Below the pieces are notes generated by a model, which ran no database searches, was not told where the DNA came from, and saw only the letters and a list, made by a program, of their open reading frames with translations. From Opitutales bacterium (lineage in GTDB: Bacteria > Verrucomicrobiota > Verrucomicrobiia > Opitutales > PNEW01), in the NCBI GenBank assembly GCA_965197745.1, contig CBDANS010000007.1, positions 32,001 to 96,000 of the forward strand: a stretch of 64,000 nucleotides of DNA, in the 5' to 3' direction. The number at the start of each line of letters is the position of its first letter. Position 1 is the first letter of the stretch. The position numbers and the translations under genes were made by a program. Positions 4,073-64,000 of the stretch are shown here, piece by piece.

Positions 4073-4139
4073 GCCTAACGACTGAGTTCACATTATTGTG
4101 AAGCGTAAAAAAAATGTCAGGAGGAACGAATTGTTATAC
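4073..4139 (-). other. attC site
   Basis: Minus strand GTATAAC (R'', overlapping the upstream stop) ... GTTAGGC (R') with imperfect internal palindrome. Confidence 0.7.
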
Positions 4140-4808
4140 ATCTTCAATAAAAATCACTTTTACAGATTCCGTTATTACTCTACCCTTATGTTTATGCGCT
4201 GCTCCATCTGGAATAAATACCCCATCTCCTTCTTTATATATTAATTTTTCATTTGCGTATTCAATTTCTAATTCACCCTCAAGAATTAAACCATAGTGCC
4301 CTATTTCACACCAGTGTGGGGGCATTTTTTTTGTGTATTCTATAAGACGTATATGTCTGTTTTCGTAATTATATGTCTTACACTTCACTCCTTCCACGGG
4401 AGATTCCCATTCAATATTATCAAAATTAATTTTATATTGGAGCATTTGTCTTCCACCAAGCACGGTTCCATCCTCCGCCCTGAGTCTTTTTCCGGCATGG
4501 ATATTCCAATGTAAATGTTTTGAGTTCTGGTAACTACCCACATTCGAGCAAACTCGGCATCCCCCTAACTCTCGCTCGAGATCACTAGAAATTTCATGAA
4601 TTGCCTTCATGAAATCTTTCGCTAACTCCGGGTCAAGTGACTCCAGCGAGGAAAGGGAGTCAATATGAGACTTGGGTATGACTACAATGTGGCGCTCAAA
4701 ATACGGATTTGTGTGGTGAAAGGCTAGTATCTGTTCTGTTTCTAGAACTACCTCAACAGGAACCCTTCCAGGGAGAATTTGTTCGCAGTAAATATCGCTC
4801 ATATTCAA
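4134..4808 (-). CDS. HIT-family protein fused in frame to a cupin domain
   Basis: N-half has HLHWNIH (HIT-like); after ...GGRQM a cupin (HWCEIGHYG...H-K-H). Confidence 0.75.
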   Translation of the reverse strand: MNMSDIYCEQILPGRVPVEVVLETEQILAFHHTNPYFERHIVVIPKSHIDSLSSLESLDPELAKDFMKAIHEISSDLERELGGCRVCSNVGSYQNSKHLHWNIHAGKRLRAEDGTVLGGRQMLQYKINFDNIEWESPVEGVKCKTYNYENRHIRLIEYTKKMPPHWCEIGHYGLILEGELEIEYANEKLIYKEGDGVFIPDGAAHKHKGRVITESVKVIFIEDV

Positions 4809-5042
4809 TTACTGAAGCATAACAAGTGATCCTAAAATTCTGTATATTTGCGTAGAAGGATACTGTCTTCGAATATCACGGCTAGTGCAACAGGCAATAT
4901 CCAGAATTAATGATGGTACCTTCTTGAGGTAGCGCTCAAATGCAAGCCGACACATCGTTGGCGTTTCATCGTTTACTTCAGGATATAACTTCTCATAGAG
5001 CTCGGGACGGTCATAGAGTAGGTTCTTGACGCTCTTATCCAT
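4809..5042 (-). pseudogene. Truncated SAM-dependent methyltransferase fragment
   Basis: N-terminus up to ILDIACCTSRD (motif I-like), then runs into the attI-like element at 4821-4870. Confidence 0.65.
4821..4870 (-). other. attI-like element, family 1
   Basis: Minus strand ...AATATACAGAATTTTAGGATCACTT^GTTATGC; homologous to copies at 5061, 11791, 18450, 21020, 49002, 49770. Confidence 0.7.
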
Positions 5043-5060
5043 AGCTCAATTCCAGTGTCG

Positions 5061-5090
5061 AACAAGTGATCGTGTAGAAATGTTGTTTTC
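5061..5090 (-). other. attI-like element, family 1 (internally deleted)
   Basis: Plus strand aacaagtgatc-gtgtag equals the family consensus lacking ~18 bp; core GTTCGAC. Confidence 0.6.
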
Positions 5091-5150
5091 TCAGAGTTAT
5101 CGCTTCAGCAGCAGCAAGGTCAAGGTGTAATGCCCCCGTTTTCTAAGCTG

Positions 5151-5756
5151 CTATCGCAGCCGAAGTATCAGCACCCAGGCAATGAAGTCATTCTCCGACG
5201 TCACGCCGAATCTTTCTTGGGACACGGAATAGAACTGAAAGTGCGACTCGCACGCATCCACGAGTTCGGCGAGAGAGAGTCGTGGGTAACCTCGGGGGTC
5301 CGGTCCTCCGTCGCGACCACGATTGTCTGCGCAACCTGTCACGTCGATCCACCATCCCCTCGGCTTTAGTACACACGCAACTCGCTCGGCAAACTCGCCA
5401 CGTTGCGATTGGTCTTCGAAGTTGGAGATCACGCTTCTGTCAAACACTAGATCGTAGGGGCCGCCTGGATCATTGTGGAAAAAATCACTGACCGTAAACT
5501 CTACATCTAAGCCGCGACGAACTGCTTCGGAGCGCGCGGTATCAATAGCTGATTTTACAATATCGATCCCCCGAACCTTGAAACCTGCTGTTGCAAGGTG
5601 CAGCGCCTGTGTACCGACACCGCATCCAACATCAAGGATACGCCCACCATCTGGCAGAAGCTCTCGGACCATGTTCTCGAGTGGTGCCCACGGCATCCCA
5701 TCCTCCCAGGGTGTTTGACCCTGTCGGTACCACTCGTGCCAATCGAGAGAGGTCAT
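5151..5756 (-). CDS. Class I SAM-dependent methyltransferase (TPMT-like)
   Basis: ILDVGCGVG motif, N-terminal W..Y..G.TPW, YDLVFDRS. Confidence 0.85.
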   Translation of the reverse strand: MTSLDWHEWYRQGQTPWEDGMPWAPLENMVRELLPDGGRILDVGCGVGTQALHLATAGFKVRGIDIVKSAIDTARSEAVRRGLDVEFTVSDFFHNDPGGPYDLVFDRSVISNFEDQSQRGEFAERVACVLKPRGWWIDVTGCADNRGRDGGPDPRGYPRLSLAELVDACESHFQFYSVSQERFGVTSENDFIAWVLILRLR

Positions 5757-5768
5757 AGAGTTATCGTC

Positions 5769-6122
5769 TCACGGCTGCTGGCGGAGTTCAAATCCATTAC
5801 CTTCGCAATCTTGGAAACGGGCGACCCTATCGGATACTCTACCCCTGGGTTCGATAAGTTCGATCAAGCGCCCTCCAAGTTGCTCTATATCTGCTTGAAT
5901 CTCTTCAATATGGTTTACTTCAAGATTCAGACCGGCGTGAGGCAAAGGACCTTCATCATCAGAGGGAAGAATATGTAGCGCCAACTGAATGGCGCCGAAA
6001 TCCAGCATTGTCCAACCTGGAGATTCAACTGACGGCTTTACATCAAAGGCTTTCATATAGAAGTCCTTTGCTCGATTCATTTCATATACGTAATGAATTA
6101 CTATAGGATTTTTCGCTTTCAT
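5769..6122 (-). CDS. VOC/glyoxalase family protein
   Basis: AKDFY...F, LNLEV, FQDCEGNGFEL motifs; start moved to MKAKNP. Confidence 0.85.
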   Translation of the reverse strand: MKAKNPIVIHYVYEMNRAKDFYMKAFDVKPSVESPGWTMLDFGAIQLALHILPSDDEGPLPHAGLNLEVNHIEEIQADIEQLGGRLIELIEPRGRVSDRVARFQDCEGNGFELRQQP

Positions 6123-6123
6123 G

Positions 6124-6825
6124 TTACCTGACTCCTTTTGCAATTTCTGTATCGACCGATTTGTTCAGTCGATTTTTGTAAGCTGCTATTCCAAATGATA
6201 TGTCGGAGAATCTCTTCCAGACAACCTCGAATCCAAGCTTTTGTAGCTGCTCTAGCGACTCTTCAAGGTGCCAGAAGAATTCATCGCTCAGAGCCTCAGC
6301 AACGACTTCGTTTCCAAGCCTTCTGTATTCTTTGATCTTTTCGTTATTCGCTCTCGCGTTCTTAACCATGAGATCGCCGAAGACAGCCGCTCCACCATCG
6401 CCAAGGCTGGACCATAGTTCCTGAAAAAAGTGACTCTTCTCTTCTTCAGTCAAGTGATGAATTGTATACGTACTCAAAACTGCATCGAATAGTCCGAGAT
6501 CGCGCTCGAAAACTGCAAGAACGTCGTCGTTAATAAAGGTGCGATGATTTAGATGAGCGTTCTTATCGCGGGATAATTCCTCCATTCGGTCGGAAACGTC
6601 TACACAAACGACCTCTTTGCATTGAGGTATTCTCTTTGTCAGGTTGCCAGTGCCGGAGCCTAGCTCCAAGACTCTTGAGGAATCCTCTATACCAGCAACA
6701 GCTACAACCCAGTCGAGAACTGACTCGTAGTTGGTTCGGATGGGATCGGAATCGTTGAGAACGTCTGCATCGTAACCATCAGCTTCTTCGTCATGATTGA
6801 AGTAATCTGCGTGAGTGCTTCTCAT
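6124..6825 (-). CDS. Class I SAM-dependent methyltransferase
   Basis: VLELGSGTG, YTIHHL; start set after the attC at 6833. Confidence 0.85.
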   Translation of the reverse strand: MRSTHADYFNHDEEADGYDADVLNDSDPIRTNYESVLDWVVAVAGIEDSSRVLELGSGTGNLTKRIPQCKEVVCVDVSDRMEELSRDKNAHLNHRTFINDDVLAVFERDLGLFDAVLSTYTIHHLTEEEKSHFFQELWSSLGDGGAAVFGDLMVKNARANNEKIKEYRRLGNEVVAEALSDEFFWHLEESLEQLQKLGFEVVWKRFSDISFGIAAYKNRLNKSVDTEIAKGVR

Positions 6826-6832
6826 TTTTTTA

Positions 6833-6896
6833 CTCGAACGTCGAAGGTCTGGCATAGCAGCGCTAGCCTGCATTGTCCAGGAACGCTTGGTTATGT
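6833..6896 (-). other. attC site
   Basis: Minus strand ACATAAC...CTGG..GC/GC..CCAG...GTTCGAG. Confidence 0.8.
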
Positions 6897-6912
6897 CTGT
6901 TTCGTTTACCTC

Positions 6913-7938
6913 CTAGTGAGTCCGTTGGAATATGTAGCCGATCGAGTTCCTGGCAATCTCCTTTGTCACGGAGTTCGGTAATTCATTTGTATGCTCAGCT
7001 AGCTTCTTCAGCGCTTCGTCTGCGAGACGCACGGCTTCCTGCTGCGCATAATCGATTGATCCGAGTTCTTTAAATGTATCCAGAACCCACTTAATCTCCT
7101 GGTCGGTCCGGTCATTCCGCTGCTTTCCATATATTTTCCGCAACTCGTCCACCTTCGCGGATGATGCATGTTGTACGGCGTGCCAAAGGATCAATGTCTT
7201 AGCACCACTGCGGACATCATTCCCAATTGATTTTCCGAGAACCCTTTCTGTCGACGTGCAATCCAACACGTCGTCTGTCAACTGAAAGGCCTTGCCGGCC
7301 GGAACGCCATATTCTGGTATCGCATCGATAGCTGGCTGGGATGCACCGGCTATAATCGCTCCGCATTGCATCGGACCGTAAACACTATAATAGGCTGCCT
7401 TCGCATGAATCGATTCGTAATACATTTCAGGCGTAAAATCGGTGACTTCGGTCGTGCATTCGCTTAGGTTGATGTCTAGATATTGACCTTCGTGGGTCGT
7501 GTGCATGATGTCGTAGAATCGCTCAAGATACCTTCTACCTCGTTCCTTGCCGATCGTTTCCGCTGCGTCTATCGCCGCCTTCCAGCTAAATGCCTGAAGG
7601 TGGCTGCCGGCCAGAATGGCGTATCGCTCACCGTGCATGATGTGCGCAGCTGGTCCGTTCCGTCTGATTAGATTGCCATCCATCCAATCATCATGCATGA
7701 GAAAGTAGTCCTCAGACAGCTGTGCTGCAGCAGCGGGTAGAATCGCATCTTCATCATTCCCCCCATACAGGACAGTCCAAAGGATTAGGTAAACTGGCCT
7801 CCGGTATTGGCCTTGGCGGTCAACGTAGGTGCGAACCATGTTATGGTACGTCTCCGGCTCACCTCCGGGTAGGTATCTACATACAGTTTCGTAGATCCTA
7901 TCTCTGTAGGAACTCTTGAAGGATTGGAAGTCGTTCAT
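6913..7938 (-). CDS. Polyprenyl synthetase (trans-isoprenyl diphosphate synthase family)
   Basis: Two DDxxD motifs (HDDWMD, TDDVLD), RR loop, GQYLD, GK..GND. Confidence 0.9.
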   Translation of the reverse strand: MNDFQSFKSSYRDRIYETVCRYLPGGEPETYHNMVRTYVDRQGQYRRPVYLILWTVLYGGNDEDAILPAAAAQLSEDYFLMHDDWMDGNLIRRNGPAAHIMHGERYAILAGSHLQAFSWKAAIDAAETIGKERGRRYLERFYDIMHTTHEGQYLDINLSECTTEVTDFTPEMYYESIHAKAAYYSVYGPMQCGAIIAGASQPAIDAIPEYGVPAGKAFQLTDDVLDCTSTERVLGKSIGNDVRSGAKTLILWHAVQHASSAKVDELRKIYGKQRNDRTDQEIKWVLDTFKELGSIDYAQQEAVRLADEALKKLAEHTNELPNSVTKEIARNSIGYIFQRTH

Positions 7939-7946
7939 TTCAGTTG

Positions 7947-8019
7947 GTATAAAGATAAAGCTCTCAGGATTTCATGAAGTCCCAGCGAAATGAAATTCTT
8001 GTGCAGCGCATTGTTGGAT
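7947..8019 (-). other. attC site with mutated R' (TTTATAC)
   Basis: ATCCAAC AATGCGCTGCACAAGAATTTCAT...ATGAAATCCTGAGAGC TTTATC TTTATAC. Confidence 0.75.
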
Positions 8020-8040
8020 GTTCCATTTCTGTACAGTACA

Positions 8041-8469
8041 TCAGAGACACTCGCTTATCCTCGCAGCATAAGAATCCCGCGTTACCTGATCTGAAGTTGG
8101 CGGTTCCGCGGGATAGACGCGAAGGAATCCATCGGCGGTCTTTCGCGGATGAATATGAAAATGGAGATGCGGAACCTCCTGGAATGCCGCGGGCCCGATC
8201 GAGTGCCAGAGGCTGAGACCTTCGCCTGGGAAGGCTGTGTCGACAGCCCGCGTTATCCGTGAAATCGTTTCCATAAGAGCTGTGCCGGTGGGGGTGTCCA
8301 GTTCCCGTACGTCGGGAATATGCCGACGAGGGATCACCAGTGTGTGCCCGGCGTGGAACTGCCGAATATCCACGAAGGCCATTGTCAGGTCATCCTCGTA
8401 GACGATGCTGGCGGTACGTGTTCTCTGCGCGATTTCGCAAAACACACAGGCCTCATGTGTTCCGTTCAT
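8041..8469 (-). CDS. HIT family protein
   Basis: CVFC, GHTLVIPRRH, HLHFHIHP. Confidence 0.92.
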   Translation of the reverse strand: MNGTHEACVFCEIAQRTRTASIVYEDDLTMAFVDIRQFHAGHTLVIPRRHIPDVRELDTPTGTALMETISRITRAVDTAFPGEGLSLWHSIGPAAFQEVPHLHFHIHPRKTADGFLRVYPAEPPTSDQVTRDSYAARISECL

Positions 8470-8471
8470 CT

Positions 8472-9125
8472 TCAGCTTGTGACGATCCCTCGCCACACCC
8501 TTTTGAATGGTTTCCCTGTCTCTCTGTCAGGAATTTCAATATGTTCAAGCCGTAGAGATGCCCAGATTTGGAATAGAGATTCCAATTTTTCCCTGAAGAA
8601 GAAATGAACAGTCTGTCCATCTTTCTCAAGAATTAGGTTCTCACCCAGTTCTGCAAGTACTGGCTTTCTCAATGCGCGAAGCTCACGATCTTCAGTGGAG
8701 TTTACATGGAAAATAAACTGTCCTGAAAGTTTCAGCACCCGTTTCACCTCCATGATGATGCTCTGAGTTGTCGCGTCATCAAACATATGAAGGGTGACAT
8801 TTGAAAAAACAGCGTCGAAAAGGTCGTCAGGAAAGGGAAGCGTATGTGCCATGTCGGCTTGTATGAATTCAGCCCCCGGGATCGACTTCGATTTCGCCAT
8901 TGAAATCGCTTTATCGGAGAATTCAAGCCCTGTTACGCGAAAACCCGCTTTTGATAAACGAGCCACGTCATTTCCGGATCCGCAGCCAAGGTCCAGGATG
9001 CTCCGGCATCCACGCGCTCGAAGGACATCAATGAACGGGTCAATCCATAGACCACCCCAATTCAGGTCACCATATTGATCGAACCGCCTATCCCAGACGG
9101 AAGAGTCTGCATAAGATGAAGTCAT
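8472..9125 (-). CDS. Class I SAM-dependent methyltransferase
   Basis: ILDLGCGSG, FDAVFSNVTLH. Confidence 0.88.
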   Translation of the reverse strand: MTSSYADSSVWDRRFDQYGDLNWGGLWIDPFIDVLRARGCRSILDLGCGSGNDVARLSKAGFRVTGLEFSDKAISMAKSKSIPGAEFIQADMAHTLPFPDDLFDAVFSNVTLHMFDDATTQSIIMEVKRVLKLSGQFIFHVNSTEDRELRALRKPVLAELGENLILEKDGQTVHFFFREKLESLFQIWASLRLEHIEIPDRETGKPFKRVWRGIVTS

Positions 9126-9138
9126 AAATATATCTCTC

Positions 9139-9227
9139 AGCTAACGTTAGAGCTCACCGGCCTTGGCTTGTAGTTGCTGCACTGGAAGTGCAGCTAGCCG
9201 AGGCCCGTGTGCAGCTAATAGTTATAC
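9139..9227 (-). other. attC site (canonical, 89 bp)
   Basis: GTATAAC TATTA GCTGCAC...GGCCTCGGCT...GCTGCACT TCC AGTGCAGC...AGCCAAGGCC GGTGAGC TCTAAC GTTAGCT. Confidence 0.92.
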
Positions 9228-9232
9228 AAATC

Positions 9233-9679
9233 TTATAATTCATAAACATACTCAAAATTATGATCACCATCTAACTTTGCCCCTGTTGATTCATATAATT
9301 TCTGAGCTTCAATATTATTATGTCCTGTTCCAACCCATATTTCCATAATGTTTTCATTCTTACCTATATCTTTCATCAGTTGAATCATCGACTTCCCAAT
9401 TCCTTTTCTTCTATGTTTCTCATCTACTCCAATTTCATATAAGTACACCATATATTTATCTCTATCAATTCTTGGGAATTTATGTGCAATTAAAAAACCT
9501 ACAGGCTCATCATTTATTAACCCCAAAATCAAATAATTACATGGATTATGAAGTAATTCTAGGATGTGTATTGAACTTGGGTAGCGACTTTTCCCCTCAA
9601 CATTTATTTTTAGTTTGATGATCGCTTCAATAGCAAGCTGATCATCATTAGGGGATAGCCGTTTGACTTCAAAATTCAT
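9233..9679 (-). CDS. GNAT family N-acetyltransferase
   Basis: YEIGVDEKHRRKGIG, N..A..LYESTG; start after the attC. Confidence 0.88.
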   Translation of the reverse strand: MNFEVKRLSPNDDQLAIEAIIKLKINVEGKSRYPSSIHILELLHNPCNYLILGLINDEPVGFLIAHKFPRIDRDKYMVYLYEIGVDEKHRRKGIGKSMIQLMKDIGKNENIMEIWVGTGHNNIEAQKLYESTGAKLDGDHNFEYVYEL

Positions 9680-9687
9680 TTCTATTT

Positions 9688-9744
9688 GTATAACGTCAGC
9701 CATCAGGCGTGCCATTTGGCATCGCCTGCATGGCAGGGTTGGGA
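9688..9744 (-). other. attC site (57 bp)
   Basis: TCCCAAC CCTGCCATGCAGGCG ATGCCA AA TGGCA CGCCTGATGGC TGAC GTTATAC. Confidence 0.9.
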
Positions 9745-10571
9745 CTTTTCATTTCCTCATAGAGTTTGCCGGGGGAAAGAAACCTGAACCCAAGGTCCTT
9801 AGCTCGCACTAGAAAATCCGAAATCCACTTTCCTTTTGTCTTTTGGAATACCTCCACGGTCGGGGTGTCGTGGTCGTGACTGCATACGTTCCAGATCCAC
9901 TGCTTTTTCGATACCTCATGAAGCATCGCGACAAGATAGTCCTGATAGCTATCGCCGTGGCGCCGGTCGTCGAAACGATCCCAATAGAAATCATCCTGAT
10001 AGCCCTGAATCCCAAGCTCGAGGATATCCGGGAATCCCTGATCGTCATAGAAGAAGGGTTGTTCTGTGAAAGGCGTTGGCTGACAGTCACGAAAGTCACG
10101 CGCATTCGTGCGAATCCACCGGATGCCATTGTCCTGCAGGATTTGCAGGATATCAGGCCGATCAACCAGACCTCGGTAGTAACCCCAGGGACCGGTCAGT
10201 CCGTGGCACTCGACACTCAGCACATCGCCGATCAATGTCTGGGTCCTGGTGATTTCTTCACGGATTTCGCCTTAGCTGCCGCCTGCATTGAAAAAGTTCG
10301 GGTATGATCCATGTACCGGTTTGCCATCATGGGGCGTCATATAGACGGATTTTAGCAGTGTGTGGCTGTAGGTGTGCTGACCAATGGTTAAGAGCGGATT
10401 GTCTACCATCTTCTGAATCTCATCACCACACTTCTCGAGGGTTTTGCCCGTGAGGTAGATCGTCCATGGTACCTCCAACTTATTGTGTAGAATCTCTGCA
10501 CCCCGGAGGAATCCTATAGTGCTGTCTGACGCGGTTTCGACGTCGTATCCGCAGATTATGCTCGCGCTCAT
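9696..10571 (-). pseudogene. Polysaccharide deacetylase (NodB-like) interrupted by one in-frame TAA at 10272-10274
   Basis: ORFs 10272-10571 (GYDVE, IGQHTYSH) and 9696-10235 are in the same frame, joined by GGS*GEIREEITRTQTL. Confidence 0.8.
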
Positions 10572-10590
10572 AATTAGTGCCCCCTTGTAG

Positions 10591-11766
10591 TTACATTCTG
10601 GCTAGCTGTCTGTTAATCTTTTCGATTCCCTTATCAATACGCTGCTTGCTCCAACCATAGGGAGTAGGGCACAAAACCGTCTTTTTCAGGTACTTGTCTG
10701 TCTGCCTTAGCGGTTGCCGGTAGTTGGTCTTGATTTTCTTGTTCCTGGGGTGCCTGAAGCAATCCCAATCCGGATGGTGCCCCCCGACCTTGCTCTTAAC
10801 CACATCCCAGGCTGAATACACATGGCGACCTGAGTTGATGGGGCGGTGCACGCCAGGGACTAGATGCTTTACCATTATTGCTTCAAGTTTCTCGGCGGCT
10901 TTAATATTCTCTGCCTGGATTAGAAAGCACACACCACAGTTGCCGTTTTCATCATTGCTAATTACGAACTTGAAACCAACCGGTAAATTAATCCCTGCGA
11001 GGAACATCGATCGTGTTTTCCGAAGAGTCGTCAGTATCCTGTCCAACCGTTTGACCTGCTCTCTCATAATGACGGCGTTGAGATCATTGAATCTAAAGTT
11101 GCCCCCGCAAAAATAGCTTTCGTGCATCTTGCCTTTTTCCGGCCAGACACTACAGGCCCCGTCCTGCGCCATGTATGCTTTTTCACCGTATTTCCTGTTT
11201 GAGGTGGCGCATGCACCCCCTTCGCCGCAAGAAATAATCTTAAACTGATTGAAGCTGAAAGCGCCCATGTCGCCGATTGCCCCGAGTCGCTTCTTACCAT
11301 AACTACCACCGATGGCCTGGCAGCAATCCTCGAGAATGAGAATATTCTTTCCTTTTGCTATCTTTCGTATTGCCCGCATGTTGCACGGCATGCCCTGCAT
11401 GTGCACAGGAATTACGCAGGCAGTATGCTTTTCTATTTTCCGCTCCATATCGACGGGGCACAGCGTAAGGGTTTCGTCAACTTCCGTATATATGGGGATT
11501 GCACCCACAGCTGTCACGGCCAAGGCCGTGGAAATAAAGGTGTATCCTGGAACCAGAACAGAGTCTCCAGGGCCGATTCCCATTGCTTTCAAACTGATTA
11601 TGAGCGCGGCAGTTCCGGATGTAACTGCAATTGCCGACTTAACGCCGATCAGTTCTGCCCATTCTTTTTCGAACTTGACCGTTTCCGTGCCCAGGTATCG
11701 AAAGTACGTCCTCTTTTCGAGCGCACGTTTTACCGCATTCAATTCCTTTGTTCCAAGCTCGTACAA
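10591..11766 (-). CDS. DegT/DnrJ/EryC1/StrS PLP-dependent aminotransferase
   Basis: SGTAAL, EDCCQAIG, FSFNQFKIISCGEGG (PLP lysine). Confidence 0.93.
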   Translation of the reverse strand: MYELGTKELNAVKRALEKRTYFRYLGTETVKFEKEWAELIGVKSAIAVTSGTAALIISLKAMGIGPGDSVLVPGYTFISTALAVTAVGAIPIYTEVDETLTLCPVDMERKIEKHTACVIPVHMQGMPCNMRAIRKIAKGKNILILEDCCQAIGGSYGKKRLGAIGDMGAFSFNQFKIISCGEGGACATSNRKYGEKAYMAQDGACSVWPEKGKMHESYFCGGNFRFNDLNAVIMREQVKRLDRILTTLRKTRSMFLAGINLPVGFKFVISNDENGNCGVCFLIQAENIKAAEKLEAIMVKHLVPGVHRPINSGRHVYSAWDVVKSKVGGHHPDWDCFRHPRNKKIKTNYRQPLRQTDKYLKKTVLCPTPYGWSKQRIDKGIEKINRQLARM

Positions 11767-11790
11767 TGGTGATACCTCCTGTTAAGACCC

Positions 11791-11806
11791 AACAAGTGAT
11801 CCTAAA
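11791..11806 (-). other. attI-like element, family 1 (core only, cut by REPIN-like element)
   Basis: Minus strand TTTAGGATCACTT^GTTGGGT; GTTGGG complements R'' TCCCAAC of attC 9688-9744. Confidence 0.65.
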
Positions 11807-11817
11807 AAGATCAAAAA

Positions 11818-11961
11818 GAGTCGGGCTGTGTATTTGTAGATTGTTTTTCAATAAATAGTCAAAGTGAAGTAATAAAAAATAGTTATTTGAATTAGTTAAT
11901 TCTTAATATTTACAGGCTGTATTATTCTATTATGTAAATCTATAAATACACAGCTTGACCC
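11818..11961. repeat. REPIN/MITE-like element with 25-bp terminal inverted repeats
   Basis: GAGTCGGGCTGTGTATTTGTAGATT ... AATCTATAAATACACAGCTTGACCC (21/25 match), AT-rich interior; related arms at 21176-21201 and 62564-62589. Confidence 0.7.
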
Positions 11962-12056
11962 CATTTTCACTGACCCCTTCCACTCTCAGTCGGTACGGAT
12001 TGCGGAATGAACCTTACGGTTATTAAATATAATCCCCATCTTAGTAATCACACTCT

Positions 12057-12097
12057 TGTCATTGCGAAGGAGGTGAAGCCGACTGCGGCAATCCAGG
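12057..12097 (+). repeat. GTCATTGCGA...GCAATC palindromic (REP/RPE-type) element
   Basis: TGTCATTGCGAAGGAGGTGAAGCCGACTGCGGCAATCCA resembles a widespread palindromic repeat class. Confidence 0.5.
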
Positions 12098-14879: not shown

Positions 14880-14908
14880 TAATAATATTTAAGACTACAC
14901 TCTGACCC

Positions 14909-16481
14909 GAATGGCGTTAAGATAAGGGTGGTTTAGGATGATAAAAGCCTTTGTTTTTTCGTGAAGCAGAGATGGTCATCATGGCTCGTGGATGAGTCAA
15001 TCGTTGGAAAGGTATAGGTCTACGTTTGAGGACTCTTGGTTCGTATCGGAAGGGACGTAGGGGGACCGATTCGAGGGCAATGAGGTGTATCATCTCGTCA
15101 ATGACAGATCGTTGGGCTCTGGGATTAAACCGGGTGGCCGCGAGCGCACTTTGATATTGGCGGAGGGTGTCAACAGCCCCCTTGAAGCTTAGCCGGGAGA
15201 GGTCGCGGTGGAAGGCACTGGCAGCTTGCTGCAAAAGAGCGCGGATGAGAGATTGTAGGCGATGGCAAACATCGCAATCTCTTTGCGCACGAGAGCGACC
15301 GAGCGAGAGCGCAGGATCTCCATCCCCATGGTGGTTTTGATGTGGCGAAAGTAAAGCTCCACTGCCCAGCGCCGATAGTATAATTCTCCGAGATCGTGGT
15401 GGGAGTATTGGTGAGGATCGCTCAAGGTAGTCACGAGGTCTACGCTATGGGCGCGGAAACCCTTGATGAAAATGAAAATCTTCACCAGCCGTACGGGGAT
15501 CTCATCAGGGATTTGCCGCCACTGCTCGCGACTGAAGCCGAAGACATTTTGCGGCTTCTTCCACATGATCAGCCGGTCATACCTACCCAAGGACCTGCCC
15601 TGACGAAAGTCGCTTCTTCGTTGCTGATGCAAACGCATGACCGCTTCAGCACCGCGGCCTTTAAGCAGGGCAATATTGAGGTAAGAGCAAAATCCCCGGT
15701 CGGCAAGGACCACATCACCCTTTTGAAAAAATCCGATCATGCCCCGCAACAGCACACTGTCATGATGCCTTAGTGAGGACTCCATCCAGTGTAAAAGCGC
15801 CCCACTGGCTAAAGAAAAACAGCCCACCAGCTTCATCACCGGAAAGCCGCAGCCGCTTCGTTGCTGCGAAGGCTGTGGGTAACACCTCTGCAAGCACGGC
15901 GTATCGGCGGTGGCGATACCCGTGCCGTCGACCACTTTTACCTCGTGACCTTTCCACCGTTGATCGTCGGTCACTCTCCCGGCCACCTCTTCACTGATCG
16001 CTTCATGGATCCCGTGCAGGTCTTGCACCAACAGCCGTTGCCTCGCCTGACAGTAGGCCGAGGCCGTTCCTTTAGCCAACTTCAGCCCCTTCATGCTGCA
16101 ATAGCTCTGGAGCTTGCGCACCACTTCCCGGCAGGCAGTCCGTGGTGAGAGCACTTGGAACAAAAATGCCCAGAAGGTCACGTTTTGGCTGAACAATCTC
16201 CGCCGGCTGTTAGCCCCTCGAGGCTTCCGGTGTAAATACTTTTGCGGCACCCACTGCCCGAAGATATCCGATAGCTCGGAAAGACTTGACCGCCGTATTT
16301 CTACCAGCTTACCCTCCATCTGTGCAAGGGCTGTTCGGGGAGCACGACCGAACAGGACCTGATTAAATCCTGGAAAATAACGAGTTAAGTTTTGTTTTTG
16401 CATGCTCGTTAGGGTAGCTCTCCAACGGTCCCTGTACAAGCATCTATTGCACTCATTCTATCCCTTATCTTAACGCCATTC
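14909..16481 (-). mobile_element. IS4-family insertion sequence, copy 2, with 11-bp target duplication CACTCTGACCC
   Basis: Same TIRs as copy 1; direct repeat at 14898-14908 and 16482-16492; at least 3 SNPs versus copy 1. Confidence 0.93.
14917..16403 (-). pseudogene. IS4-family transposase with the same C-terminal frameshift as copy 1
   Basis: ORFs 15189-16439 and 14917-15234. Confidence 0.85.
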
Positions 16482-16502
16482 CACTCTGACCCCTTTTATG
16501 AT

Positions 16503-17062: not shown

Positions 17063-17119
17063 AGCTAATGTTTAAGGGGAGGCACAACTTCAGGTGTTGT
17101 CTCCTTCGACTGGTTCAGC
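17063..17119 (-). other. attC site with R' ATTAGCT
   Basis: GCTGAAC CAGTCGAAGGAGACAAC...GTTGTGCCTCCCCTTAAAC ATTAGCT; R'' complements cassette start GTTCGGC. Confidence 0.7.
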
Positions 17120-17631: not shown

Positions 17632-17716
17632 GCCGAACGTTAAAAATGAATGGTTTCCTGACCAGAGTGACGAAGGAGCAACGGGAAGGGAATCCATCTC
17701 CATTTGCTTGTTAAAT
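17632..17716 (-). other. attC site (85 bp)
   Basis: ATTTAAC AAGC AAATGGAGATGG...CCATTCATTT TTAAC GTTCGGC. Confidence 0.88.
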
Positions 17717-18428: not shown

Positions 18429-18449
18429 TTGAGTTTTCTATGAAAATTT

Positions 18450-18504
18450 AACAAGTGATCCTAAAGTTCTGTATATTCGTGTAGGGGGATAATGTTGTCA
18501 ATGC
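18450..18504 (-). other. attI-like element, family 1 (full-length)
   Basis: GCATTGACAACATTATCCCCCTACACGAATATACAGAACTTTAGGATCACTT^GTTAAAT; GTTAAAT is the exact complement of R'' ATTTAAC at 17710-17716. Confidence 0.78.
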
Positions 18505-18549
18505 GGGGATAATGCCCCCATCCGACTTCAATATAATTCTACCTAAGGA

Positions 18550-19123: not shown

Positions 19124-19150
19124 GTATAACGACTAAACTAAGGTGCTAGT
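19124..19150 (-). other. attC right-arm remnant
   Basis: CCTTAGTTTAGTC GTTATAC immediately before the ATG of the next gene; left arm absent. Confidence 0.5.
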
Positions 19151-20259
19151 CGACGTTGCCTGTACTGTCTTGTTCGCCCCTGTTTTTTCGATACATGACA
19201 TTTGATTGGTTTTCAGCCAGCAAAAGCTTTCTACAATCTTTGTCCTTCAGATAAATGTCGAAAAATTCGACAATCACCGCTCCCAATCTTTCCACGCGTT
19301 CCTTCGGGCGAAATGAAATTAACGATTTGGCCTCTTTAGCGCCACTGTTCATAGGGAAGATAGTTGGCAGTCGAAAAATTGTTATGGTCCCAACCTTCGA
19401 AAATCACGAAATTGAATTCCCCATTAAAGTCTTTGGCATCGTCAGCGAACAGTTGAGCGATTCCATCCAAATTTGGTCTGCCTCTAATTCTCAGCATCGG
19501 GGAAAAGCTACTTCTGAGTTTTCTCTGTGTGCTTTCCGGTCATCGGTTAATACCCGATGTTCCGTCATTCGTCATATAGGCATAGAGAAATCCGTCGATA
19601 TTTACGGCTGCTTTAATTCTTTCATCCTCGGCGTCGAGTAATGTGGAGACATAGCCACCGCGAGAATGCCCAAATATGCCGATAGTATCTAGATTGACGG
19701 CATTGGCCAGCGCCTCGGGGGAATTGCTTCCGAAAATGAAATCGAGGACTTTCTGAGCATCAACAACCCGATCTTCAGTCATTTTAATGAAATCGTCAAC
19801 ATCTGCGATTTCTATGCAAAGGTGACCGTTGGGGTATGTGATCAGGATTCCTTCATGAGGATGGTCTATTGAAACAATGACATAACCCGATAATACAATC
19901 TGCCTGAGAACCGGAAGGTTTGAAAAGCGATTTCCATTTCCGGAAGGCGAGTACAAAAGCAGCGGATAGGGATTTTGCCCTGAAAGCAGTTCGGCGTTCT
20001 CATAGCACCCGGTTGCGATCTTCATTGAGTCTTCAATGATTCGCCCCTTATCCCCTTCGGATAGAAGCGTGCCATTCAGGATACAGTCAAGTGCTGGTTT
20101 TATGGAAGGCCTGAAGAGGTCAATGTACATCATCTCACGCGAGACCGCATCTCGTGAAGCCGGATAAAAGATCGAAATCGGTATCGTTCTTGAAGGATAC
20201 GAAGCAACAGAACTTCGGTTGCCATCTTCGATAAAGCAGTGTTCAACGCCTACATCCAT
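19146..20259 (-). pseudogene. Alpha/beta hydrolase (PAF-acetylhydrolase-like), disrupted
   Basis: GHSRGG nucleophile motif; in-frame TGA at 19540-19542 followed by ...GWDHNNFS; C-terminal VEFFDIYLK in another frame (19146-19352). Confidence 0.75.
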
Positions 20260-20304
20260 CTGATTGTATGCTTCTCATGTCGTGGGAATCTCATTTTCTG
20301 GTGA

Positions 20305-20375
20305 ACCTACCTGCAAGCTCACTGGATTTCACGGAGCGTAGCGGATTGTAGTACCAGTGAAGCGCCTTGTTAGCG
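20305..20375 (-). other. attC site with R' GGTAGGT
   Basis: CGCTAAC AAGGCGCTTCACTGG...CCAGTGAGC TTGCA GGTAGGT. Confidence 0.8.
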
Positions 20376-21008: not shown

Positions 21009-21019
21009 GTCTTATCACT

Positions 21020-21072
21020 ATCAAGTGATTCTAAAGTTCTGTGTATTCGCGTGTGGGGATAATGTTATCAGG
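21020..21072 (-). other. attI-like element, family 1
   Basis: Plus strand atcaagtgattctaaagttctgtgtattcgcgtgtggggataatgttatc; core GATAGTG. Confidence 0.7.
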
Positions 21073-21251
21073 TTAAAGCTTGGCAATTTCAAATCGTTAC
21101 CAACAATATCCGTTTACATACCTGACAGTTGATATTTATTTTTCATATCTTCACATTTATGACTCATGTAGATCTAATTTATAAATACACGGCGCGACCT
21201 CTTTTATTTTCTTAAAAAATCGATATACGAGATACGAAAAAAGAGATTTGT

Positions 21252-48988: not shown

Positions 48989-49001
48989 TCTGCCTTCTGC
49001 G

Positions 49002-49056
49002 AACAAGTGGTTCTAAAGTTCTGGATATTTGCTATGGGAATATTGTTGTCAATGCA
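49002..49056 (-). other. attI-like element, family 1
   Basis: Plus strand aacaagtggttctaaagttctggatatttgctatgggaatattgttgtcaatgc; core GTTCGCA just upstream of the sulfatase ATG. Confidence 0.7.
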
Positions 49057-49097
49057 GGGGGGGGGCAGGGTGATGTCGATCTTTTTACTTCACCCAA

Positions 49098-49760: not shown

Positions 49761-49769
49761 GGTATGTCA

Positions 49770-49798
49770 AATAAGTGATCCTAATGTTCTGTATATTC
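49770..49798 (-). other. attI-like element, family 1 (truncated next to REPIN-like element)
   Basis: Plus strand aataagtgatcctaatgttctgtatattc. Confidence 0.62.
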
Positions 49799-49811
49799 AA
49801 GAGTATTAGCA

Positions 49812-50003
49812 GGGGTCATCCTTCATATTTTAATATTTTAAATTTTGGTAGGAAGGATGATTCTACATTCGCTCGACGATAAATGCGACGAATGTTTTTT
49901 GCTAATACTGTCATGACTCACTTTGAAAAAATTAAATGGTGTGCCCTGTTCTTTCGATTCAAAGAAATTGCTATTCATATATTAAAATATGGAGGATGAC
50001 CCC
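49812..50003. repeat. REPIN/MITE-like element with 24-bp inverted repeats
   Basis: GGGGTCATCCTTCATATTTTAATA ... TATTAAAATATGGAGGATGACCCC (23/24); related arms at ~44684, 44974-45015, 47606-47619. Confidence 0.8.
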
Positions 50004-56264: not shown

Positions 56265-56286
56265 GGCGTTTCATTTGGACAATTCT

Positions 56287-56337
56287 AACATCATATTATC
56301 CAACCGGTTATTGCGGTGAGAAAAACAAGAAGCAAAT
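56287..56337 (-). other. attI-like element, family 2 (shortened)
   Basis: Minus strand TTGGATAAT ATGAT^GTTAGAA; shares the gagaaa...caa..caaatc tail with the 58342 and 60207 copies. Confidence 0.55.
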
Positions 56338-56774
56338 CATTTCGGTTTTTCTAAATAGTCAATCACGGCATTCCAAAGTGGGTGGTCCGGCTGCATGTGC
56401 ATTCGATAGAAATCCACAGTTTTGCTCCATACTGGCCTACCCAACACCTCAGTAATAGTTCTATCCGACGCTTCCCCAATTCCTGTAGTGCTTGGATAGG
56501 TCGTTACATGCACGCTCAAATCTCCAACCTTGAATTTAAATGAGGGTGGGTTCGAGGGGGTGATCTGCGTAGGTCCATATTCTTTGAACACTTCCCTTGT
56601 TTCTTCGATGCATCCCCACTTCACGGTTATGTCCAGATCATCCATATCAAAGTTGATTCCATGAGCGAATAGGGCAGTGGAACCATCGAGATGATAGGTG
56701 ATCTTGTTCAATTCCAAATCGCAAACGATGCGCACTATCAGATTTCCCCAATCTCTTCTCCGTGGAATCTCCAT
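56337..56774 (-). CDS. Nucleotidyltransferase-like protein
   Basis: GSTALFAHG...DDLDI (GS...DxD). Confidence 0.7.
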   Translation of the reverse strand: MEIPRRRDWGNLIVRIVCDLELNKITYHLDGSTALFAHGINFDMDDLDITVKWGCIEETREVFKEYGPTQITPSNPPSFKFKVGDLSVHVTTYPSTTGIGEASDRTITEVLGRPVWSKTVDFYRMHMQPDHPLWNAVIDYLEKPK

Positions 56775-57411: not shown

Positions 57412-57512
57412 GTCCAACGTTCCAGATGAGCGACTGAAGAGAGAATAACCAAGAACGAGAGCGTCGCAAGCCAACATCGGAACTGAAAGCACCCGCTCCA
57501 TCTGGTCTAATT
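57412..57512 (-). other. attC site (R'' degenerate)
   Basis: CCAGATGGAGCG...CGCTCATCTGG AAC GTTGGAC. Confidence 0.72.
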
Positions 57513-57545
57513 ATTTCATTCACTGGATGTTCCCGAGTGAGGCGC

Positions 57546-58346
57546 CTAGCCGGATAGCGAAACTGAACCAGTCAGAATGTGCCCGCAGGGAACGAAGCCG
57601 GCTTTCTGAAGCGTGTTGCGAGAAGAGATATTAGTGATGTGGCAACGTGCTGCGGGAACGCTTCCTTGCTCGTAACAAACCCGTTTCAACTCTTGCACCA
57701 GGTAACAGCCAAGTCCACGCCTCCAGAACGGTTCCGCCACTTCCATGTAAATGTCGCCATAAGGGCGATTATAGTGAAATAAAATGCCTCCAGTCGCCGC
57801 GATCTCGCCCTCGACATCTAATACCCAATCTCCAACCGGCTCCACTCGGTGTGGAAAAATATGTTCGGTATCGTCTTCTGTCGCTCTCCGAAAAACGGAG
57901 CCGTTCGAAGAGTGAGCAGTTGTCAGTTTATCGTGGAAGAGGATGGACTCGGGCTTCACTTTTTTAGCGAACGTGTGCAACATTACGGTCAACCATGGAT
58001 CATTGCTCTGGGTTCTGATCCTGTTCGAGCCGCAGGTGGTAAGCAGCACAACAAACAGGTCGAACATGCGCGAGCGATAAGGCGGTGCTACATAGAACTC
58101 GAACACCGCTGGGTTCTTCTTCCAAGATCCACCGACCATAATCGAGCCATATCCCGCAATGACGTCGCCTACAATGAGAAGATAGGGTTTGCTCCAACCT
58201 TTACGAGAGTGTAATGAGTCATGAATGATCTGGCAATTCATCTCCTGCCGGTAACGATCGCGCCAGGGTAAAATGTTCTCAAGCGTTGTAGTTCTCGCCG
58301 TGTTTTTTTGAATTCTCTCTACGGGAGTGGCAATGCCTTTTAACAT
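57546..58346 (-). CDS. GNAT family N-acetyltransferase
   Basis: EVAEPFWRRGLG, N..S..TLQKAGF; the nearest in-frame ATG lies in the attI-like core. Confidence 0.8.
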   Translation of the reverse strand: MLKGIATPVERIQKNTARTTTLENILPWRDRYRQEMNCQIIHDSLHSRKGWSKPYLLIVGDVIAGYGSIMVGGSWKKNPAVFEFYVAPPYRSRMFDLFVVLLTTCGSNRIRTQSNDPWLTVMLHTFAKKVKPESILFHDKLTTAHSSNGSVFRRATEDDTEHIFPHRVEPVGDWVLDVEGEIAATGGILFHYNRPYGDIYMEVAEPFWRRGLGCYLVQELKRVCYEQGSVPAARCHITNISSRNTLQKAGFVPCGHILTGSVSLSG

Positions 58347-58416
58347 TAGATTAGCCAATAGGTTTTCAATATAGTCTCCGCTATCGAGGGGAGAAAGGCA
58401 ACAGACAAATCTCAAC
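58342..58416 (-). other. attI-like element, family 2
   Basis: Minus strand ...AACCTATTGGCTAAT CTAAT^GTTAAAA. Confidence 0.7.
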
Positions 58417-58446
58417 AGTGGGTCCGCTTCAGCGTGTTGTCAGGCG

Positions 58447-60189: not shown

Positions 60190-60206
60190 TCAATTCTTCT
60201 CCGCAT

Positions 60207-60280
60207 AACATTAGATCGGCCAACAGGTTTTTATGGAGGATCGGCTATTACGGTTAGAAAGACAACGAACAAATCTCAAG
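60207..60280 (-). other. attI-like element, family 2
   Basis: Minus strand ...AACCTGTTGGCCGAT CTAAT^GTTATGC. Confidence 0.7.
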
Positions 60281-60331
60281 TTGAGATAGCCGCAAACTAA
60301 ATCGCCGCTTCCAATGGTTTGATTGAATCTT

Positions 60332-61811: not shown

Positions 61812-61871
61812 TATTTCCCTATGGCAAAGTCTGACCCTTTTTGACTTTCTTAATACCAATAAACGTACCGC

Positions 61872-62411
61872 TTAATCTTTATGGGGTTCGTCGATTAGAA
61901 TGTAAGTAACAGGGGGTGTATGCTTCTTAAAATGCTTCCTCGTATCATTAGACAGTTTTCTAAATAACTGCGGTGTCATTGAGAAACCGTATGTCTTCTG
62001 TAAGAACATGGTGTTTACAGTAGAGCCAAAAATATCAAATCGCTTATCTTTCCTCGTTCCAATTTCACCACAGACAACACTTCCGAAATGGGCTTTGAGG
62101 TGATGCCTGCTGGGGATATTTTTACGATTTAACCACTCATCTCCTTTTTCTTTCAGAGATAATAGCGCCAGCACCCCTTCATCGATCGAATCGGATGGAA
62201 ATAAAAGGAGATTTGCATCCCCTATAAATTTTACCACTCGGCCATTAGCGCGCCCTATTATATCACCAATGAGTTCATAGTATTGAGATAGCATTGCGAA
62301 TAGATCAATTTCCGATAATTGCCTTGCGAAACGCGCAAAATTAGAGAGATCGGAAGAGGCAACCAATGCCTCGATACACGTAATATTTTCAGTTAATGGA
62401 TTCTGTTCCAT
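61872..62411 (-). CDS. Class III adenylate/guanylate cyclase catalytic-domain protein
   Basis: SDLSNF, VVKFIGD, FDIFGSTVN. Confidence 0.85.
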   Translation of the reverse strand: MEQNPLTENITCIEALVASSDLSNFARFARQLSEIDLFAMLSQYYELIGDIIGRANGRVVKFIGDANLLLFPSDSIDEGVLALLSLKEKGDEWLNRKNIPSRHHLKAHFGSVVCGEIGTRKDKRFDIFGSTVNTMFLQKTYGFSMTPQLFRKLSNDTRKHFKKHTPPVTYILIDEPHKD

Positions 62412-62589
62412 TTTATTGTTCCTTCAGGTTGTTATGATTGATTTCGACGACCTGTGAATTCGTCAGGTATGGAAGGAATCGCCAGCTCAAAAGTCTGGCA
62501 GTTATAGATTATAAGGTATTATTTTTTGATTTATGACGCAATTCTTTTCTCCTTCTCTCTTTCAACCTATTAATACACAGCCTGACACC

Positions 62590-63150
62590 TTATAACTTGC
62601 TTGTGCTAAGTAGATAGCGGTCGGCTCCCTTTTTGGATTCACCTGTTGGTGCGAATCGAAACCTGTGAATAAGCCTGATGGACGCAAGATTCCCGGGTTC
62701 GATATAGGCATCGATCGAATGGGACCCGTAGGTTGAAGTGGCCCATGATATTGCAGCACGACAGGCTTCTGACATAATCCCTTTACCCCAAAAACGTGGG
62801 TGTAAGTGAAAAGCGATTTCAGAACATCGACCCAGCGAGTTGAAGCCTACTGCTCCGGTGAATTGAGGTTTGTCTTTTAATAATAACGCCCACCTGAAGG
62901 CAGTTCCCTGTTCTTGATGTCGCATAAAGAAGTCCAGGATCTTGTCGCTTTCCTGGGAGTTTGTTGCCGGCAGCTCTATGGGGTTGCCCCAAAAGTCGAT
63001 CGCGGGACCTGAATAACATGACACTTCCGGACTTGACCAGAGTTCGAACATCCCAAGTGAATGATCTTTTGAGAAGGGCTCTAAGACCAGCCGCTCCGTT
63101 TGCAGATGTGGCACTTCCAGCATAGTGCATATCAATTTTTCGGCATCCAA
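62590..63150 (-). CDS. GNAT (RimJ/RimL-like) acetyltransferase
   Basis: LQTERLVL, FWGKGIMSEA, N.ASIRL. Confidence 0.9.
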   Translation of the reverse strand: MDAEKLICTMLEVPHLQTERLVLEPFSKDHSLGMFELWSSPEVSCYSGPAIDFWGNPIELPATNSQESDKILDFFMRHQEQGTAFRWALLLKDKPQFTGAVGFNSLGRCSEIAFHLHPRFWGKGIMSEACRAAISWATSTYGSHSIDAYIEPGNLASIRLIHRFRFAPTGESKKGADRYLLSTSKL

Positions 63151-63159
63151 ATCTAAAAC

Positions 63160-63921
63160 TCAGCGGTGCGGCTTATTCACGTCAGGTTTCAGCCGAGGGG
63201 GGATGATTTTTCTGGCACGTATGCACATAAAAAGCGGCTTCCGCAAGAGCTTATGGTAAAACTCTGGATCAGTATTCTTAATCGCTTCTGTTGGCATTGG
63301 TTCGTGAACATTTTCAATCAAAAATCCAGCATCCGTTACAGAGGATATCACTTCCGTTAACGGTCGGCGTACACTTTGCATCTCGAATTTTTTTTTGAAT
63401 CCGGAACCCCATACACTCTTGACTAATTCGGTCTCAAAGTAATTGTCCGTTCCGTAATCCTCAAAAGCGAAACAAGGATGCCCTACTGAAAAAAGCACAA
63501 TTCCGTCATTTTTAAGAATCCGGTGCAATTCTTGAAATAATTGCTTCCAGTCCCAAACGTAATCAAAAACCAAAGGAGATAAAACCAGGTCAAGGGAACT
63601 GTTTTCTATAAAATCCAGAGGCTTAGACAAATCGGCCACTTTGACTTCACATTTCCCCTTTGTCCTTTTCTTTGTGATGTCAACCATGCGTTGACTGTAA
63701 TCAATCGCCAATACTTTGGCCCCATGTTCCAGTAACCACTCGGTATAAACCCCGGGACCACATCCGGCATCGAGGACATATTTCCCTTTCACCTCCGGCA
63801 TAATCGACAGCATTGCCGGTTTCTCATACAAGGCGTTTGCGTCCTTTGTCTCTACCATAGAGGCATAATCTTCAGCGATATCTTCGTAGATAGCGTGCGC
63901 GATCGATTGCTTTGTTTTCAT
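63160..63921 (-). CDS. Class I SAM-dependent methyltransferase
   Basis: VLDAGCGPG; start after the attI-like site. Confidence 0.9.
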   Translation of the reverse strand: MKTKQSIAHAIYEDIAEDYASMVETKDANALYEKPAMLSIMPEVKGKYVLDAGCGPGVYTEWLLEHGAKVLAIDYSQRMVDITKKRTKGKCEVKVADLSKPLDFIENSSLDLVLSPLVFDYVWDWKQLFQELHRILKNDGIVLFSVGHPCFAFEDYGTDNYFETELVKSVWGSGFKKKFEMQSVRRPLTEVISSVTDAGFLIENVHEPMPTEAIKNTDPEFYHKLLRKPLFMCIRARKIIPPRLKPDVNKPHR

Positions 63922-63934
63922 TTTGTCATCACCC

Positions 63935-64000
63935 AACAATTGATTAGCCAATAGTTTTTTATCGAATCTCGGTTAATGCCCGGAGAAAGTCGATTTCAAA
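63935..64000 (-). other. attI-like element, family 2 (runs to window end)
   Basis: Minus strand ...AAACTATTGGCTAAT CAATT^GTTGGGT. Confidence 0.68.

Follow-up and report, generated by a model that had tools for sequence, protein, structure and literature searches.

The stretch of DNA analysed here (the window) comprises 64,000 nucleotides of an Opitutales bacterium (assembly GCA_965197745.1, contig CBDANS010000007.1, positions 32,001 to 96,000), which correspond to G000:C7:32001-96000 of a 4.45-Mb source genome (G000) in 7 contigs with an estimated completeness of 92%. It carries arrays of small genes that resemble integron cassettes and that are preceded by short repeated elements, which we refer to as heads. 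A Pfam scan of 65 chosen open reading frames (ORFs) delineates two rows of small, co-oriented minus-strand genes at 4-21 kb and 49-64 kb, and their products are small-molecule-modifying enzymes (GNAT, methyltransferase, HIT, glyoxalase, HAD, APH and sulfotransferase). Large ordinary genes occupy both strands of the intervening 21-49 kb, with a 972-aa FG-GAP protein, an Ig-like protein, an ABC transporter, four enolase-superfamily genes, sulfatases and HEAT proteins, so that an earlier note on this DNA, which had spread the system over 60 kb, overstated its extent. As that note had reported, no tyrosine recombinase was found in the window, either with Pfam among the 65 ORFs or by tblastn with an IntI. 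A search against Rfam at its gathering threshold returned no match in the window, and NCBIfam gave nothing for 12 unnamed window ORFs.

Repeat finding and alignment identified 11 heads in the window, all on the minus strand and belonging to two families, A (five clear and two weak copies) and B (four copies), in agreement with the at least 11 attI-like elements of two families that had been claimed. With the exception of the weak copies, nhmmer E-values range from 1e-11 to 1e-24. The heads, two of them lying behind or cut by miniature inverted-repeat transposable elements (MITEs), are as follows:

4817..4892, minus strand: family A head (nhmmer E 5e-15), then a HIT-cupin gene and the attC-like site at 4073-4139 called by eye
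about 5061..5125, minus strand: weak or decayed family A head, from the alignment of A copies
11788..11836, minus strand: weak family A head, 3′ part only, behind a MITE (nhmmer E 0.45)
18447..18519, minus strand: family A head (nhmmer E 3e-17) ending CACTTG|TT, then the HAD cassette and attC 17632-17716
21016..21092, minus strand: family A head with its terminal GTT mutated to GAT (nhmmer E 1e-15), then a methyltransferase gene and the by-eye attC 20300-20375
48999..49062, minus strand: family A head before the sulfatase gene 47639-49006 (nhmmer E 3e-13)
49766..49832, minus strand: family A head, 5′ side cut by a MITE, before orf220 (nhmmer E 7e-11)
56283..56370, minus strand: family B head before a HIT gene (nhmmer E 6e-12)
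58336..58435, minus strand: family B head before a GNAT gene (nhmmer E 4e-24)
60201..60297, minus strand: family B head before sulfotransferase and APH genes (nhmmer E 3e-24; no hairpin, z +0.65)
63930..64000, minus strand: family B head cut by the window end, before a methyltransferase gene (nhmmer E 9e-16)

Some of these heads, or the genes behind them, recur in relatives. The head at 11788-11836 precedes a three-gene DegT block that ends at the attC site 9688-9744, and this block (9694-11768) is kept as a single unit in three relatives. The head at 49766-49832 is retained together with orf220 in the related genomes G032 and G060, and the head at 58336-58435 stands before the same GNAT gene in G060.

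Three home-made hairpin scans for AAC...GTT sites returned mostly coding-region noise, with no excess over shuffled sequences, and were replaced by a covariance model (R2). This model was seeded with 10 sites from seven intI-adjacent Opitutales arrays, 92 sites were gathered from those arrays, and the model was rebuilt and run with filters off; our attC counts rest on R2 and on inspection by eye. Within the window, R2 gave 11 matches at E<=10, ten of which lie on the minus strand. All of the best seven (E<0.5) lie on the minus strand; six of them fall at gene junctions between 6.8 and 19.2 kb, with lengths of 55-88 nt and scores of 12.9-23.5 bits that are low because the sites are so short. 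The remaining match (24391-24420) is intragenic and probably spurious. The recognised sites and candidates are:

17063..17119, minus strand: attC of 57 nt between kinase and HAD genes (R2 23.5 bits, E 9e-4)
17632..17716, minus strand: attC of the HAD cassette (R2 16.9 bits)
19124..19178, minus strand: attC after orf68 (R2 17.2 bits)
9688..9744, minus strand: attC with a strong hairpin (R2 16.5 bits; DNA fold -15.6 kcal/mol, z -5.1)
9140..9227, minus strand: attC after a GNAT gene (R2 12.9 bits), the sole site passing the strict hairpin scan
6833..6897, minus strand: attC after a polyprenyl synthase gene (R2 18.0 bits)
4073..4139, minus strand: attC-like site at the left end of the array, by eye (R″ GTATAAC, R′ GTTAGGC), not called by R2
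20300..20375, minus strand: attC-like site, by eye, not called by R2
7960-8019 and 57504-57551: decayed attC candidates, by eye, from reading the sequence

The total is thus about ten (six model-supported and about four by eye) rather than the roughly 15 of the earlier note, and all lie at 4-21 kb except the decayed candidate at 57504-57551; above 9 bits, R2 finds nothing at 21-64 kb of the window. A strong fold was seen at 9688-9744 alone among the attC sites tested. Genome-wide, seven of eight R2 matches fall within the window or in one array on contig C6. The attC signal of the window is real but sparse and low-scoring. Two clusters of sites, 6833/9140/9688 and 17063/17632/19124, lie in a genome with no IntI over the cut-off, and by the 4-kb clustering threshold that Cury et al. 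2016 (PMC4889954) describe they are groups of attC sites that have no integron integrase (CALINs).

The origin of the arrays can be interrogated at the edges of their cassettes. The bases following G|TT at the 5′ edge of a cassette derive from the cassette's own attC, and are for this reason complementary to the RYYY in the R″ box of that attC. At attC-to-attC junctions inside the array, the matches number 4, 3, 4, 4, 4 and 3 of 4, so that all six are at three or four. For example, R′ GTTATAC of the attC at 9688-9744 agrees with the next R″ (GTATAAC) at 7/7 positions, R′ GTTCGGC of the attC at 17632-17716 with the next R″ (GCTGAAC) at 3/4, and R′ GTTCACC of the by-eye site at 20300-20375 with the next R″ (GGCGAAC) likewise at 3/4. 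We applied the same rule to all independent pairs formed by a head and the nearest model-called attC downstream of it, in the source genome and in loci of G032 and G060, counting repeated copies of a cassette of family PF05635 once. The 11 independent pairs gave 4, 3, 4, 3, 3, 3, 4, 4, 1, 1 and 1 matches of 4, or 31 of 44 positions against about 17 expected. Non-cognate pairs have a mean of 1.55 of 4 and never reach 4/4 (0/110), compared with 4/11 cognate pairs at 4/4 (permutation p ~1e-4). Two of the perfect pairs come from other genomes, G032 and G060, and the array on contig C6 has attC matches plus one 7/7 junction.

In the particular case of the window, the head at 18447-18519 gives 7/7 (GTT+AAAT against R″ ATTTAAC) and the weak head at 11788-11836 gives 3/4 (GTTGGGT against R″ TCCCAAC). 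For the head at 4817-4892 the value is 6/7 (GTTATGC against R″ GTATAAC), and for that at 21016-21092 it is 3/4 variable bases against a by-eye R″ (CGCTAAC); the head at 48999-49062 has no attC downstream, and no cognate R″ was found for it. At least eight different cassettes entered at the same nucleotide of two unrelated repeat families. Since the junction bases bear the signature of integron insertion, the heads would have behaved as attI-type or hot-spot sites. At the level of sequence, this demonstrates that two unrelated repeats, in many of their copies, received different cassettes at one and the same nucleotide, apparently through a reaction of integron type.

Profile searches of the source genome, which provide the genome-wide count of both elements that the earlier note had proposed, recovered 21 copies of family A (E<1e-3) and 10 of family B (E<=1.1e-3), clustered in few arrays. 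Similarity among copies ends precisely at G|TT, and the next base is a purine in 18/21 A copies and in 9/9 alignable B copies. A co-oriented ORF starts within 60 nt of the head for 16/21 A copies and 7/10 B copies. No consensus fold emerges for either family, the folding of six copies does not exceed that of shuffles (minimum free energy (MFE) 0 to -3.3 kcal/mol, z -0.6 to +1.4; the head at 18447-18519 has an MFE of 0 kcal/mol and z +1.4), and R2 matches no head in the scanned loci of the source genome. While this absence of a hairpin is observed directly, recombination of the heads as double-stranded attI-type sites is what we infer from it. The earlier note's reading of the repeats as attI-type recipient sites is supported by their lack of structure, their end at G|TT and the junction matches. 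By eye, family A is also promoter-like, with TTGACA, 17 nt and GAATAT (9/12 match to sigma-70) reading into the first cassette; family B is without a recognisable promoter.

Two other identities were considered for family A and rejected. It could have been the attC site of an ORF-less promoter cassette, as a near-palindrome overlaps its -35; it has neither a fold nor an R2 match, and its left half varies without compensation. It could have been the left end of a MITE; only 1/19 GGGGTCAGGC-type inverted ends is contiguous with A, and A contains no matching right end.

The distribution of the heads is narrow. A 22-nt pattern of family A, searched with <=3 mismatches in 401 Opitutales genomes, matches 19 times in the source genome, 21 times in G032 and 10 times in G060. 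Elsewhere among these genomes, 15 have one or two 3-mismatch matches, about the level of reversed-pattern controls (0-1 per genome). The family B pattern is present in all four genomes of the bacterial family to which the source genome belongs (8, 5, 9 and 1 matches), and its exact pattern has no match in GTDB species genomes. The exact family A pattern matches two JGI metagenome contigs, neither with IntI. Both head families are confined to one bacterial family within Opitutales.

Integron integrases were searched with TIGR02249 at a cut-off of 265 bits, which 92 of the 401 Opitutales genomes exceed, while the best match in the source genome reaches 80 bits. The strongest matches in the bacterial family are proteins of 312-319 aa that we read as XerC/XerD-like, and no match lies in or beside the arrays examined. 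In the integrase-bearing relatives, the junction rule pinpoints attI in 7/7 intI-linked Opitutales integrons, five of which (family f23) have a common 3′ end. This attI motif occurs in 0-3 copies per f23 genome, and two integrase-bearing genomes, G218 and G244, each contain two copies far from intI (G218:C1:1097001-1109500, G218:C1:3965001-3977800 and two loci in G244). All four orphan copies are followed by attC sites on the same strand (14 in one, one in each of the other three), all four have a 7/7 junction, and tblastn detects no IntI similarity near any of them. Orphan attI copies heading integrase-less arrays, as identified by their motif and junctions, exist in Opitutales, and the head-bearing family is an extreme, integrase-less case of this pattern.

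Comparison with relatives provides a view of how the arrays change. Homologues of window genes are scattered over G032 and G060, singly or in small blocks. In flank alignments starting at GTT, the downstream gene keeps its A head in the source genome in 6/6 cases (two of which are the same gene in two genomes), whereas upstream flanks keep the head in 6/14. In one 97%-identical pair, homology starts inside A, right after the -35. At one orthologous site, G032 is longer by 7.7 kb (seven heads and about nine genes) between two heads, where the source genome has one hybrid head; this difference fits homologous recombination between head copies. Cassette polymorphism at heads, which the earlier note had proposed to examine between strains, was seen as differences between genomes, and these fit recombination between heads.

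Our preferred interpretation, to which we assign a probability of roughly 60%, is that these are relic integron arrays without an integrase. Their cassettes would have docked at heads that are present in multiple copies and equivalent to attI, and family A would supply a promoter. The arrays would be of CALIN type, clearest at 4-21 kb, with cassettes behind short, unstructured heads present in many copies. An integron-type integrase would have inserted different cassettes at the same nucleotide of many heads, making these the equivalents of attI, because the four bases after G|TT pair with R″ of the first downstream attC. The sigma-70-like promoter of family A would read into the first cassette, much like the cassette promoter (Pc) before attI. 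The integrase may since have been lost, or may never have been chromosomal, and the arrays would therefore now be largely frozen, with present change arising via homologous recombination between heads plus the activity of insertion sequences (ISs) and MITEs. Because the heads at 49-64 kb are without a recognisable attC, we infer the integron origin of this right-hand row rather than observe it.

Several results weigh against this interpretation. No integron integrase exceeds the cut-off in any of the four genomes of the family (the source genome and three relatives), where the best match is 84 bits. The heads are never found beside intI, for A in the 401 Opitutales genomes, for A and B in 19 intI loci, and with exact patterns in the GTDB and JGI collections, so the check proposed in the earlier note, whether the same elements adjoin intI here or in relatives, gave no case in the genomes, loci and collections searched. 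A hidden Markov model of the five real f23 attI sites matches neither A nor B, even against a database of those copies only, and a likeness of the family B 3′ end to real attI that had been noticed by eye was likewise unsupported by the profile search. Between integron classes, attI sequences are in any case not known to resemble one another. Scores of the attC sites are low, and for two of the sites that entered the analysis the call was made by eye. Of the 11 junction pairs, three fall short with a single match of 4, about 10 of the 31 head copies in the genome have a model-called attC downstream, none of the four family B copies in the window has one, and the junction is testable for about a third of copies. 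A promoter scan did not include family A among its hits, its second hexamer matching at 3/6, and the scan total of 28 is not above the 24.5 +/- 4.3 of shuffles. Finally, the 6/6 linkage of heads to their downstream genes across genomes would fit a plain promoter too.

There are alternative explanations for the heads. The one that survives best, which we nevertheless consider unlikely, is that they are resident or mobile promoter modules next to which cassettes entered by off-target insertion at attG sites, being selected hot spots and not a dedicated attI. As far as the account of Loot et al. (bioRxiv 10.1101/2022.09.11.507474) describes it, attG sites have a GWT consensus, cassettes inserted near resident promoters are expressed, and elements with a single attC are termed SALINs. 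The present arrays are similar in that insertion lies outside a classical integron, at GWT, near a promoter, with single or few attC sites and no integrase. The promoter-like sequence of family A, the joint travel of head and downstream gene, the absence of intI beside any head and the lack of homology to real attI all point in the same direction. Set against this, the attG sites in that account are extremely numerous and resemble att sites neither in sequence nor in structure, whereas here the same nucleotide of conserved repeats is reused: the entry of at least eight different cassettes at one nucleotide of two unrelated families is what a dedicated site gives, and family B is without a recognisable promoter. 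In practice, off-target insertion and docking at attI equivalents differ only in whether the integrase recognises the heads specifically.

Somewhat less probable still is that the heads are live docking sites of a distributed integron, about 30 per chromosome and equipped with promoters, served in trans by a non-chromosomal integrase or a different recombinase; the carrier of such an integrase might be, for example, an unbinned plasmid or phage. If this were true, the orphan attI copies of G218 and G244 would show dispersed capture sites to be general in Opitutales. The earlier note had proposed such servicing in trans, and it is unsupported by the four genomes of the family, in which no integrase was found.

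We regard it as improbable that the heads are promoter or leader modules of co-regulated accessory genes, spread by duplication and gene conversion, for which GTT and the attC match would be coincidental. Around two thirds of head copies have no downstream attC and the right half of the window has none, heads stay with their downstream gene, and the 7.7-kb difference between G032 and the source genome is bounded by two heads, as homologous recombination gives. Coincidence sits poorly with the junction statistics (p ~1e-4, with four perfect 4/4 pairs among cognates vs 0/110 among non-cognates) and with two unrelated families that both end in TG|TT plus a purine.

A cassette system of non-integron type, run by an unknown recombinase or transposase, is more doubtful again. 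Its attractions are that no IntI was found in the family, that MITEs and ISs with GGGGTCA ends crowd the same intergenic spots, and that another junction repeat family occurs at C7 1.098-1.108 Mb without attC by R2. No candidate enzyme is linked to the arrays, however, and the testable sites obey integron rules in their attC model matches, R′/R″ complementarity and G|TT crossover. The junction repeat family just mentioned is a third strand-locked repeat of about 70 nt in G000:C7:1098001-1116000 (offsets 74-114, 1299-1373, 4959-5033 and 9845-9919).

A chimeric assembly of repeats is scarcely credible: contigs of other runs do break at each repeat (A copies, MITE, IS) and synteny with relatives ends at an IS, but single contigs from three other studies span 4665-12259 collinearly with 0-17 differences, and modules of head, cassette and attC are also present in the closed or near-closed genomes G032 and G060.

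The arrays that we interpret as relics share features with several known systems. In the description of Cury et al. 2016 (PMC4889954), attC is the sole defining feature of CALINs, half of them occur in genomes without IntI, and attI is unknown for most integrons and so not searchable. The window resembles CALINs in its co-oriented cassettes, its attC sites and the lack of intI nearby or in the genome. It differs from them in that two conserved, non-hairpin, scar-bearing sites, with about 31 copies per genome, stand at the head of the arrays and interrupt them, and in that most junctions are without attC, which was lost or never present. Analogous to attI with its Pc, the heads are unstructured and end at G|TT with cassette-specific bases next, following the junction rule as at the seven Opitutales attI sites, and family A has, by eye, a promoter-like sequence reading into the first cassette. 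Unlike attI, they are not beside intI, occur in many copies rather than one per integrase and have no homology to f23 attI, and a complete integron differs from the window array in having an intI (TIGR02249 over cut-off) beside it. The orphan attI copies of G218 and G244 are alike in standing far from intI as copies of the attI 3′ end, followed by cassettes with 1-14 attC sites and a 7/7 junction in 4/4; they differ in occurring as two copies per genome, in being homologous to intI-adjacent attI and in the presence of the integrase. Literature searches on attI-like sites, CALINs and Verrucomicrobiota integrons found no description of a multi-copy attI.

Integrase-less attC clusters are common, and their origin is debated between decayed integrons, split arrays and secondary-site insertions. 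As attI is not generically searchable, a docking site kept by such clusters would go unseen. Comparing junction bases with the R″ of the first attC exposes a docking site without an integrase. In Opitutales, the rule brings out integrase-bearing genomes with orphan attI heading separate arrays, and an integrase-less family with about 30 copies of two attI-like heads. If confirmed, this would mean that an integron platform need not consist of one intI and one attI, and the rule could be applied to all CALINs in search of hidden attI sites.

Mobile elements are frequent in and around the arrays:

983..2581, plus strand: IS4-family IS (Pfam DDE_Tnp_1), with a 92% identical copy in G032
14902..16496, minus strand: second IS4-family copy (Pfam), interrupting the array
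49810..50002, minus strand: MITE with inverted ends starting GGGGTCA
44680-45013, 42955-43041 and 11817-11962: other MITEs

Both IS4-family copies have about 9-fold contig depth. The MITE families are about 90-330 nt long, and their inverted ends share with the ends of the IS4-family element the start (AAAA)GGGGTCA; their preferred positions are immediately upstream of heads and at the borders of units. The synteny shared with G032 and G060 breaks off at window base 902, adjoining the IS at 983-2581. An IS-linked rearrangement is likely at this break, because in the relatives the gene flanking it sits inside the counterpart of what is the contig C6 array in the source genome. Neither Pfam nor NCBIfam gives a match for a 532-aa ORF at 12261-13859, of which G060 contains two copies at 91% identity and whose contig depth is 4-5-fold; downstream of it, a stretch of about 210 nt (12053-12261) has high-copy repeats of about 30-45 nt at both ends, and the region 12053-13911 probably represents an insertion sequence of no assigned class.

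Breaks in the contigs of other runs occur only at repeats, namely family A copies, MITE and IS. Contig joints between 4.8 and 18.4 kb that might have indicated deletions were rejected, as with sides of only 21-36 letters they reflect one family A copy matching another. In run X6, the part at 17.6-19.6 kb is almost uncovered and is bridged by no contig; this gap was not used as evidence.

Additional observations concern individual genes. Behind family A heads, a PF05635 cassette (23S rRNA intervening-sequence protein, four-helix bundle) that carries its own attC is found repeatedly, at G000:C6:753553-753990, at C7 1.605 Mb and at C7 2.044-2.055 Mb; it is often decayed, and G032 has tandem remnants. 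Within the minus-strand array, a plus-strand gene at 14004-14879 encodes a PhyH-family dioxygenase, which belongs to a large family of paralogues arranged in tandem in G032 and G060. In the central part of the window, 110 nt from the 3′ part of an enolase-superfamily gene are present in two copies with 95% identity (43056-43165 and 45064-45173), each copy being followed by a MITE end of GGGGTCA or GGGGTTA type. Lastly, comparison of two related metagenome contigs with the genome revealed a gene family of about 1.1 kb with more than 60 copies, at 72-82% identity, across the contigs of the source genome.

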